Assembly: GCA_000165345.1 (NCBI GenBank) | Contig: CM000433.1 | Coordinates: forward strand, 320,001-384,000 | Length of the DNA: 64,000 bases | Direction of reading: 5' to 3' | Part shown: positions 37,544 through 39,691 of the stretch, piece after piece | Layout of the letters: each line of letters starts with the position of its first letter | Numbering within the stretch: the stretch's first letter is position 1 | Made by a program: the position numbers and the translations under genes | Notes under the pieces: model-generated | Databases searched by the model: none | Seen by the model: only the letters and a program-made list of their open reading frames with translations | Told to the model about the DNA's origin: nothing

Positions 37544-38485
37544 ATGAAATTTTTTGTAAGCATAAAACTACTTTTTTGTTATATTTATTTAGTAGCAGCT
37601 ATAAATGGAACCAAAAGAAAGAGAAAGTCTATAGGGCTGGTCTTTCGGAAATCTAGCTACACAGATTCTTTTTGTTCATTATTAGGCTGCAAAGATGGTA
37701 AAGGCTATGCTAGCTCAGGTGATGGCGAATGTTATTCGGTGACTCGTTGTACAAAATGTAAGAAAACTAATGTATCTGAATCATCAATGGCATACTGTTC
37801 AGCGATTCCGACAATCCCAAATGAACTTACACTCTTTCAAGGTTTTCTTAAAACTTCAAAAAGTGGACAAGAGATTTTAAATTCAAGTGTATTTATGGAT
37901 GAAAGTTCAGATATGTCTGAAAATGATGAACAAAAAACAGATGATTCTGAGGGCAGTCAAGACTATGATGATAATGATGATGATGATGATGATGATGATG
38001 ATGATGATGATGATAGTGATAGAGAAAATGCTGCTGGCATAAATAGAGGTTACCCTAGTAAACATATTTCAATGAGCACTTCAAACTTAAATGGCAAATC
38101 AGAATATTCTTTATTAGAACTCGTTTCTCAAATGACAGAATCTGAATCTGAAGAGGAAAATGAGAATCTAAGTAATTTACCTAAATCTAATAAATCACGT
38201 TCAAAAGGTTTATTTGGCAGAATTTTTAGCAAGAAAAAAAAAAATAAACCAGACGAAAATCAGGCAACACAATTTAAAAAAACGAATAGGTTTTCTTTCA
38301 ATTTAAATAGTTTGAAAAATAAGTTTCGTGATAAGAATGGACCTAATAAATTAAATTTATCTTCAAAAGAATTTGATAAAAGTACAGTTAATCAAAAATT
38401 GAAAAGCGCACAAATTTCAAAAGGAACCATTATAGAATGGGAAGCCTCTGGGAGCATACTAAACGAAAGATTAAACAAATGCACA
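37544..38485 (+). CDS. Type-I membrane protein with a poly-Asp tract, exon 1 of 6 (donor ACA|GTAAGT at 38486)
   Basis: Signal-anchor-like N-terminus MKFFVSIKLLFCYIYLVAAING and an acidic run DDNDDDDDDDDDDDDDSD. The ORF ends 3 codons after a GTAAGT. Confidence 0.6.
37976..38014 (+). repeat. Perfect (GAT)13 trinucleotide repeat inside a coding exon (encodes poly-Asp). The imperfect array spans about 37967..38023.
   Basis: Read directly: gatgataatgatgatgatgat...gatgatagtgatag. Confidence 0.9.
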
Positions 38486-38528
38486 GTAAGTTAAAGGGAA
38501 ATATATTATTTTTATCATACATTAATAG

Positions 38529-38728
38529 GTTATTGATGGATTTGTACCTCTTACTGTTCACATTTTCTTGCAATATTATAATGTTAAAAATCGTTCAAGA
38601 GTAGGGTTTAAGAAAAATAAGTTTGCGGCATTTCAATTCATGGTTGATTCAAAACTTGATAGTGAAGAGATATGCAGAAAGCCATCTAATTTCATTGGAA
38701 GGCTAACTACCAGACAAAAATTAGTAAC
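38529..38728 (+). CDS. Same gene, exon 2 (intron 38486..38528 is 43 nt; ends phase 2 at TAAC|GTAAGT)
   Basis: The frame is open from acceptor AATAG|GTT to the donor. The in-frame TAG is the acceptor itself. Confidence 0.55.
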
Positions 38729-38773
38729 GTAAGTATTATTTAGCCACTTTTTGAGGTTTGAACAACTTTTTAG

Positions 38774-38963
38774 ATCCAATTCTATCTCAGTTCCTATTGG
38801 CATATTTAAAAGTAATGGAATATCAGGGGTTATAAGCTCAATTAAGGCAAAGTATATCTGTAAAAGCCCTAAATGCTTCCCAAAGCAATATAATTCTTGT
38901 ATAAAAATAACTTGCGCATTAAATCAGGCAGATCTACATAATCAAAAATGGAGGAAAATTCAA
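38774..38963 (+). CDS. Same gene, exon 3 (intron 38729..38773 is 45 nt; donor CAA|GTAAGT at 38964)
   Basis: Acceptor TTTTTAG|A completes codon ACA. The frame matches the track ORF 38751..39116, whose start is TTG. Confidence 0.55.
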
Positions 38964-39004
38964 GTAAGTATAAATTACACAAATGTTCAATTAATGTTTT
39001 TCAG

Positions 39005-39072
39005 AGTGAAAGTATTGAAGAGAGGAAAAGAGAAATTGAAAAGGCTGTTTCAAATGAACTCCAAAATTTTAG
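39005..39072 (+). CDS. Same gene, exon 4 (intron 38964..39004 is 41 nt; donor TAG|GTAAGT at 39073)
   Basis: Acceptor TTTTTCAG. Only the phase-0 frame SESIEERKREIEKAVSNELQNF joins both flanks. Confidence 0.5.
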
Positions 39073-39118
39073 GTAAGTTGCTTAGAAGTGAAACTAGATT
39101 TATTGACTTCGTTTAAAG

Positions 39119-39449
39119 GGAATTTGCTGCGGAAACACAAGGCCCATCAAACAATGAAGAAAATACAGAAGTTCAATCAAATAAAATGAATGGACCATTA
39201 TCTTTTATAGACGATATTCAGCAGCATTCTAATGGAAACACTGCATACCAAATCGAGAATGTCAAAGATTTGGGAGAAAGTGAAGGCGATAAAAAAGAAA
39301 ATTTACATAACCATAAAAATACGAATGAAGCTATTAAAATTCAGACAAAAAAAGAAGAGGAAATAATTGATGCACCATCAGATGAAAAAAGATCCTCAGG
39401 TTTGGTGGAAAGATTAAAACGTTCGCTGGGAGTTTCAGCGGAAGAAGAG
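39119..39449 (+). CDS. Same gene, exon 5 (intron 39073..39118 is 46 nt; donor GAG|GTAAGT at 39450)
   Basis: Acceptor TTTAAAG|G. The frame equals that of the 39186 ORF but is open upstream only back to the acceptor. Confidence 0.55.
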
Positions 39450-39493
39450 GTAAGTCAGTAATTTTAATAATCCCGATTACAATAATTCTGTAG

Positions 39494-39691
39494 TTAACTT
39501 CAAATAACGTGGAGGAAGGGAATACCGAGGACAATTCACAAGAAGGGGATGAAGATATACCATTTCAACCAGAAATAACGATAAATGACAGAATTGAAAA
39601 TCCACGGAGCAATATGAAGAATATCATATATGTAACTTTGGGAATAACTTGTACAGTCATAATTATAATAGGCGCAATATGCATTATTTAA
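39494..39691 (+). CDS. Same gene, exon 6 (intron 39450..39493 is 44 nt; stop TAA at 39689). It ends in the C-terminal TM helix IIYVTLGITCTVIIIIGAICII. The spliced product is about 645 aa.
   Basis: Acceptor TCTGTAG. The frame equals that of the 39509 ORF, whose track start is GTG. Confidence 0.55.
   Translation, partial: LTSNNVEEGNTEDNSQEGDEDIPFQPEITINDRIENPRSNMKNIIYVTLGITCTVIIIIGAICII

Follow-up and report, generated by a model that had tools for sequence, protein, structure and literature searches.

The cgd5_1660 Locus Contains Six Exons

The window analyzed here is a 64,000-nucleotide (nt) stretch of contig CM000433.1 (GenBank assembly GCA_000165345.1, positions 320,001–384,000 of the forward strand) with a G+C content of ~31%. 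Our subject is a plus-strand gene at window positions 37544–39691, which bears the historical identifier cgd5_1660 and is interrupted by five short introns. The 10.5 kb around the gene match chromosome 5 of Cryptosporidium parvum IOWA-ATCC (CP044418.1) at 100% identity, as they do a second C. parvum assembly. The gene is flanked by genes for a DJ-1/PfpI protein of 185 amino acids (aa) and a 157-aa protein (CPATCC_002168 and CPATCC_002171, respectively), each identical to a protein of C. parvum Iowa II and IOWA-ATCC. The gene order at the locus is amino-acid transporter, 309-aa gene, DJ-1/PfpI, cgd5_1660, 157-aa gene, TOG protein. Sequence identity and gene neighborhood both place the gene in the ortholog group cgd5_1660/CMU_040180. 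Its exons and introns are as follows.

37544–38485, plus strand: exon 1, 942 nt, residues 1–314
38486–38528, plus strand: intron 1, 43 nt, GTAAGT..TAG, phase 0
38529–38728, plus strand: exon 2, 200 nt, free of indels against five species
38729–38773, plus strand: intron 2, 45 nt, GTAAGT..TAG, phase 2; retention gives an immediate TAA
38774–38963, plus strand: exon 3, 190 nt, equally long in C. andersoni
38964–39004, plus strand: intron 3, 41 nt, GTAAGT..CAG, phase 0
39005–39072, plus strand: exon 4, 68 nt, identical in length in every species examined
39073–39118, plus strand: intron 4, 46 nt, GTAAGT..AAG, phase 2
39119–39449, plus strand: exon 5, 331 nt, acidic disordered region with an invariant ERLKRSL motif at its end
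39450–39493, plus strand: intron 5, 44 nt, GTAAGT..TAG, phase 0
39494–39691, plus strand: exon 6, 198 nt with the TAA stop counted in, encoding an acidic linker and the hydrophobic anchor at the C terminus

Joined, the six exons form a 1929-nt coding sequence for 642 aa plus a stop codon, with zero internal stops. The list of open reading frames (ORFs) over the locus holds only fragments of 316, 54, 121, 42, 91, and 60 aa, and the gene is therefore hidden from the ORF track. This is as an earlier note on this DNA had it when proposing six exons and five introns, and the frame is indeed clean across all five junctions; the product, given there as about 645 aa, is 642 aa long. The further claim that only one chain of exons stays open depends on a limit to intron length, because free enumeration of acceptors yields many open chains: a single chain exists with introns of 35–50 nt, two exist at 35–60 nt, and 1890 exist if any AG at 20–150 nt may serve as an acceptor.

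An antisense gene was considered and ruled out, the minus-strand ORFs beneath the gene being no longer than 66 aa. An Rfam scan of both strands of 37000–40200 gave no match.

Splice Signals and Intron Size

All five GTAAGT donors reported earlier (38486, 38729, 38964, 39073, and 39450) are present. The acceptors, described as YAG throughout, have that form in introns 1, 2, 3, and 5 (TAG, TAG, CAG, and TAG), and intron 4 ends in AAG; AAG acceptors recur in several species. The five introns have a G+C content of 19–30%. With a consensus-like donor, an AG end, a frame restored by removal, and a position and phase shared with the orthologs, they show several hallmarks of U2-type GT-AG introns. Retention of any of the five leads to a premature stop.

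The GTAAGT hexamer occurs in 31 copies on both strands of the window, versus ~23 expected from shuffled sequences. With the window background of 2.0e-4 GTAAGT per nt per strand, the occurrence of five plus-strand copies within 970 nt has a Poisson probability of ~2e-6, or ~3e-4 when corrected for all such spans.

The uniformly short introns to which the earlier note drew attention are real (41, 43, 44, 45, and 46 nt) but not special, because 40–55 nt is the ordinary short-intron size in this window, in which other short introns measure 40–54 nt. In C. parvum, ~10.8% of genes have introns, intron-containing genes have 2–10 exons (mean of 2.6), and the mean intron length is ~99 nt (PMC4637869). 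The concentration of five introns in the 3′ 1.2 kb of one gene had been called striking. The immediate neighbors are intronless, as was said (products of 548, 309, 185, and 157 aa on spans of 1647, 930, 558, and 474 nt), but six exons, toward the top of the published range of 2–10, are not exceptional (PMC4637869). Like Cryptosporidium short introns in general, those of cgd5_1660 are AT-rich, fall within 40–55 nt, and have GT-AG ends with a donor of the GTAAGT type; the difference is that five occur in one gene, all within its 3′ 1.2 kb. As a single case, this clustering is mildly curious.

The introns are ~93% identical to those of C. meleagridis (100% for intron 2 and 98% for intron 4), whereas third codon positions differ by ~14% and intergenic flanks by 12–14% in the same comparison. 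This disparity suggests that almost all bases of such minimal introns are constrained.

Exon Structure Across Cryptosporidium

We compared the syntenic loci of C. hominis (two assemblies), C. meleagridis, C. ubiquitum, C. canis, C. ryanae, C. felis, and C. andersoni, with exon structures rebuilt from the annotated protein of each species. Synteny is kept at all of these loci. The lengths in C. parvum and in two of the other species are given below.

C. parvum: exons 942/200/190/68/331/198 nt; introns 43/45/41/46/44 nt
C. felis: exons 900/200/184/68/334/201 nt; introns 48/47/45/51/49 nt
C. andersoni: exons 963/206/190/68/394/201 nt; introns 68/64/77/81/79 nt

C. hominis, C. meleagridis, and C. 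ubiquitum have five introns of 41–46 nt at the same sites, and the intron phases are 0/2/0/2/0 throughout. The structure is annotated in, or recoverable from, nine Cryptosporidium species. The expectation that orthologs in related species would share the exon structure is thus borne out, with the same five sites and phases found, save that C. canis is without intron 5. Annotated orthologs include OLQ16764.1 (C. hominis), KAK9172549.1/cmbei_5001663 (C. meleagridis), cubi_01852 (C. ubiquitum), KAF7457293.1 (C. felis), cand_035930 (C. andersoni), and CMU_040180 (C. muris); this set agrees with the window gene in having six exons, in intron phases, and in synteny.

Relative to C. hominis, C. meleagridis, C. 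ubiquitum, and C. canis, exon indels are all multiples of three, and intron length changes are mostly of 1 or 2 nt, that is, not multiples of three; intron 1, for example, is off by 1 nt in C. ubiquitum, C. canis, and C. ryanae. Introns are shorter in the intestinal species (40–51 nt) than in the gastric species (64–81 nt). Because C. andersoni, a member of the gastric clade, has all five introns, the comparison places their origin before the split of the genus, making them ancestral to it.

Two species depart from this pattern. In C. ryanae (VHLK02000058.1), GenBank splits the ortholog into models of 432 and 161 aa, of which the 432-aa model reads into intron 3. A 625-aa gene with six exons and introns at the same five sites can be rebuilt there (positions 4001–6112 of the fetched locus), and its 46-nt intron 4 has a GC-AG donor (GCAAGT...TTTTAG). 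In C. canis (JAPCXC010000051.1, positions 5030–5110 of the fetched locus; window equivalent 39450–39493), the GT donor of intron 5 is missing, and two isolates have an open, in-frame sequence across the intron 5 region; the other four introns are present. The C. canis segment is 11 nt shorter than its C. parvum counterpart, which consists of intron 5 and the initial 33 nt of exon 6; this length fits either a precise intron loss with an insertion or an exonization with a frame-restoring deletion.

Selection and Family Range

The pattern of substitution indicates that exons 2–6 are under purifying selection in the spliced frame. The ratio of nonsynonymous to synonymous substitution rates (dN/dS) for these exons is 0.10 against C. 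hominis, 0.21 against C. meleagridis, and 0.19 against C. ubiquitum. There is an overall excess of third-position substitutions, which in exon 3 against C. canis takes the form of 13/5/28 substitutions at codon positions 1/2/3. The N-terminal 105 residues (37544–37858) show 15 nonsynonymous and 5 synonymous substitutions between C. parvum and C. hominis, small counts that correspond to a dN/dS of 0.86.

Homologs were found in Cryptosporidium only, with 12 matches in a profile search of 1.84 billion representative proteins. A Pfam scan of the full protein returned no family at E ≤ 1. The orthologs bear the GenBank name “signal peptide-containing protein”.

Existing Annotation of the Gene

The gene structure is already known, both in the IOWA-ATCC reference and in several sister species. 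CP044418.1 annotates a 642-aa gene at 379361–381508, the same 2148-nt span as in the earlier note, and this model matches the six exons, since 2148 − 1929 = 219 nt, the sum of the five introns. The IOWA-ATCC gene, which lies between CPATCC_002168 and CPATCC_002171, shows no difference from the window gene. The second C. parvum assembly (GCA_031892065.1) has a 636-aa product on the same span, which fits a 59-nt intron 3.

Older models are shorter. Exon 1 equals the old single-exon 316-aa model (cgd5_1660/C. hominis XP_666628.1). The 2015 reannotation lists an identity of 0.902, a dS of 0.0745, a dN of 0.0434, and a ratio of 0.58 for cgd5_1660. Exon 1 alone, compared with C. hominis by the Nei-Gojobori method, gives a dN of 0.0435, a dS of 0.0741, and a ratio of 0.59. 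Because these values reproduce the published ones, the 2015 model must have been the 316-aa exon 1 only, and the published ratio of 0.58 was computed on exon 1 alone. The C. hominis TU502 and UdeA01 models likewise comprise exon 1 only. Altogether, cut-short or split models, from older or automated annotation, are found for cgd5_1660, CHUDEA5_1660, TU502, C. xiaoi, chipmunk genotype I, C. tyzzeri, and C. ryanae; full-length models are found in the newer annotations of C. parvum, C. hominis, and C. meleagridis and also in C. muris, C. andersoni, C. ubiquitum, C. felis, and C. canis. Neither the 642-aa nor the 316-aa product has an exact entry in the protein collection searched.

Two further observations concern the neighborhood. 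The 309-aa gene (35319–36248, minus strand) is annotated in the majority of Cryptosporidium assemblies, one C. parvum record among them, and is missing from the IOWA-ATCC gene table. CPATCC_002169 and CPATCC_002170 both fall between the DJ-1 and 157-aa genes, where one protein gene is seen.

Predicted Architecture of the Protein

Exon 1 encodes the predicted signal peptide, an N-terminal 6-Cys module, acidic and basic disordered regions, and the start of a central domain. The following parts of the protein can be placed on the DNA.

37544–37600, plus strand: predicted cleavable signal peptide (hydropathy and −3/−1 rule), residues 1–19, MKFFVSIKLLFCYIYLVAA
37631–37858, plus strand: N-terminal folded module, residues ~30–105, with six invariant Cys; AlphaFold2 predicted local distance difference test score (pLDDT) of 65–79
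37976–38014, plus strand: (GAT)13, encoding Asp13, inside a 50-nt period-3 repeat (37965–38014)
38414–38963, plus strand: conserved central 6-Cys domain, predicted to be a jelly-roll β-sandwich, residues ~291–444, split by introns 1 and 2
39411–39422, plus strand: codons of R565-L-K-R568, the sole R-x-[KR]-R motif in the protein
39623–39688, plus strand: C-terminal hydrophobic segment IIYVTLGITCTVIIIIGAICII, residues 621–642, abutting the stop codon

Hydropathy analysis reveals just two hydrophobic segments, residues 1–20 and 621–642. The first had been read as a signal anchor; a cleavable signal peptide, with V at −3, A at −1, and a cut after A19, is the better fit. Twelve Cys residues are invariant, six at residues 44–85 and six at residues 313–428. 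Between these two groups lie the (GAT)13-encoded poly-Asp tract and the basic K-rich segment of the earlier description, the former found as D13 and the latter as a Lys-rich disordered stretch that follows the acidic one. The Asp tract varies between species, reading D11-G-D in C. hominis and a shorter mixed D/E run in C. meleagridis, and is likely a length-polymorphic microsatellite within the coding sequence.

The full-length AlphaFold2 model contains two folded parts, with the rest disordered (mean pLDDT of 47.6), and its comparison with known structures by Foldseek gave only weak jelly-roll matches. When the central part was modeled alone from eight sequences, the pLDDT rose to 78 with a predicted template modeling score (pTM) of 0.62, and the predicted fold is a β-sandwich followed by a long helix. 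The central region has jelly-roll matches, and the predicted topology of residues ~291–430 resembles that of jelly-roll modules such as TNF-like lectins, CBM16/22, GOLD, and viral capsids.

From these features we infer that the 642-aa product is an uncharacterized, genus-specific, secreted, membrane-anchored protein with two disulfide-rich folded modules. Its cleavable signal peptide would take it into the secretory pathway. The mature chain would then present, from N to C terminus, the 6-Cys module, the acidic (Asp13) stretch, the Lys-rich stretch, and the 6-Cys jelly-roll domain with its long helix, followed by a second acidic linker with an invariant RL[KR]R|S and a hydrophobic C terminus that would leave no cytoplasmic tail.

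The Predicted C-Terminal Anchor and a Candidate Cleavage Motif

A C-terminal transmembrane (TM) helix had been placed seven residues before the stop. The hydrophobic segment is there, but it forms the last 22 residues, with nothing after it, and a hydrophobic C terminus without a cytoplasmic tail is found in all nine species. Such an end may be either a tail-less TM anchor or a glycosylphosphatidylinositol (GPI) attachment signal. Candidates for the omega site, of the form [KR]-S-N, suit a GPI signal well in C. andersoni, where the sequence is S-N-G, and are poor at omega+2 in C. parvum, where it is S-N-M. The C-terminal hydrophobic run is more conserved than its surroundings, which would favor a retained TM helix.

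Each ortholog in the nine species has exactly one R-x-[KR]-R, always within E-R-L-[KR]-R-S-L and always at the same aligned position, 74–82 residues from the C terminus and within a poorly conserved acidic region. By analogy, RLKR is a candidate cleavage site for a subtilisin/furin-type protease. In GP60 (gp40/15), a subtilisin-like protease cuts at an RSRR site to give gp40 and gp15 (bioRxiv 10.1101/2024.02.04.578776).

The likeness to GP60 lies in the overall plan only: both have a signal peptide and a large ectodomain, a single R-x-[KR]-R that precedes a short C-terminal piece, and a hydrophobic C terminus without a cytoplasmic tail. The two proteins have no sequence similarity, the search of 1.84 billion proteins having given orthologs of cgd5_1660 alone. 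They also differ in composition: GP60 has a Ser/Thr mucin tract, whereas cgd5_1660 has no poly-Ser/Thr run, its low-complexity sequence being Asp/Glu- or Lys-rich, and it contains two Cys-rich folded modules with acidic and basic linkers.

Most likely, the product would be an extracellular binding protein attached to the membrane through either a GPI anchor or a tail-less TM helix. As in GP60, an ectodomain of ~550 aa could be cut from an anchored stub of ~74 aa by a subtilisin-like convertase. That it is an unrecognized genus-wide adhesin of the surface or a secretory organelle, GP60-like in build and with a jelly-roll head that binds a host or parasite glycan, is a speculative reading that we consider unlikely.

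Weighing of the Alternative Readings

The observation of six exons is confirmed, and its interpretation is supported. The best explanation overall, in which we place high confidence, is one protein-coding plus-strand gene with five short GT-AG spliceosomal introns and a 642-aa secretory product. The alternatives concern a single acceptor, the extent of the gene, and the reality of the introns.

The alternative that survives best leaves the gene intact and moves the acceptor of intron 3 by 18 nt downstream (AG at 39021–39022), either as the main acceptor or as one of two in use. Intron 3 would then measure 59 nt, exon 4 would start at 39023, and the product would be 636 aa long, without SESIEE. 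At intron lengths of 35–60 nt, no chain besides this one and the 642-aa chain stays open, and the annotations of C. parvum GCA_031892065.1 and C. hominis GCA_045269125.1 both carry the 636-aa form. A 59-nt intron, however, would be an outlier among the five, and the IOWA-ATCC and most ortholog models take the 41-nt intron. The 18 nt at issue (39005–39022) are moreover conserved as codons, reading SENIEE, TENTEE, or AENIEE in other species, and in C. canis two GAA codons have changed synonymously to GAG. This codon conservation favors the 41-nt intron 3, although both acceptors may be used; as the principal form, or one of two, the 636-aa product appears unlikely.

A second alternative, a single-exon 316-aa gene (37544–38494) followed by noncoding sequence or independent small ORFs, corresponds to what several public annotations contain. 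Models of 316, 312, and 312 aa end at exon 1 (cgd5_1660, CHUDEA5_1660, XP_666628.1, C. xiaoi, and chipmunk genotype I), and the 2015 values for cgd5_1660 are, as described above, those of exon 1. But the downstream 1.2 kb is under purifying selection, with its dN/dS of 0.10–0.21 and its third-position excess, and the frame is preserved only when the five introns are removed, at positions and phases conserved genus-wide. The central domain also crosses the exon 1/2 junction and is predicted to fold as one unit, and the newer models and those of several sister species are full length. A gene confined to exon 1 is thus very improbable.

Least credible of all is the idea that GTAAGT and AG fell into such a chain by chance in AT-rich DNA, or that the locus is a decayed pseudogene. 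GTAAGT is not rare in the window, and many chains are open if acceptors are unconstrained. Against this stand the clustering of five same-strand donors, the selection acting on the spliced frame, and the fact that all nine species retain that frame together with the anchor, the motifs, and the Cys pattern; the comparative sequence data already refute this reading.

A few points weigh against the six-exon reading of the locus as a 642-aa secretory protein or temper it, in addition to the annotated 636-aa form. A YTRAY branch-point motif lies 10–12 nt from the 3′ end in C. parvum introns 3 and 4 only and is inconsistent in other species. The RNA-seq support, which speaks for the six exons, is that of the IOWA-ATCC annotation as a whole, whose introns its paper describes as 100% supported (PMC8744675). 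A literature search of the library consulted found no paper mentioning the gene. Finally, cleavage at RLKR, GPI attachment, and a surface location are putative.

Other Spliced Genes in the Window

Several other genes in the window have, or may have, introns of similar size.

61741–62443, plus strand: gene for an Isy1-like splicing factor, its 43-nt intron (GTAAGT..AG) starting at 61884; the Pfam Isy1 match (E of 2e-38) spans the intron junction
53775–55047, plus strand: HORMA-domain protein (Pfam E of 2e-65), with a short first exon apparently joined via a 52-nt intron from 53811
23411–23765, plus strand: Roadblock/LC7-like gene with a candidate 40-nt intron; Pfam match below the cut-off
50401–51051, plus strand: EMC10-like membrane protein with a candidate 45-nt intron; Pfam match below the cut-off
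56562–55797, minus strand: Ras-like GTPase with candidate introns of 43 and 54 nt
20345–19710, minus strand: unassigned ORF with candidate introns of 58 and 50 nt

The candidate introns at 23411, 50401, 56562, and 20345 were called from ORF continuity and weak Pfam matches only.

Significance

The gene structure itself adds nothing new to the IOWA-ATCC reference. Its analysis does flag public models that hold exon 1 only or that split the gene, and it brings forward an uncharacterized secretory protein, found in Cryptosporidium only, with a predicted convertase motif, a predicted tail-less anchor, and a predicted jelly-roll head. If this protein were indeed an adhesin, its fast-diverging N-terminal module (dN/dS of 0.86) would suggest a role in host adaptation. 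Since retention of an intron brings in a premature stop, intron retention could in that case give rise to anchor-less forms or serve as a stage-specific switch-off. For the genus, the gene offers a case study of five intron positions held since its base while intron length shrank to ~40–50 nt, with one lineage-specific loss or exonization in C. canis and one GC-AG donor in C. ryanae.

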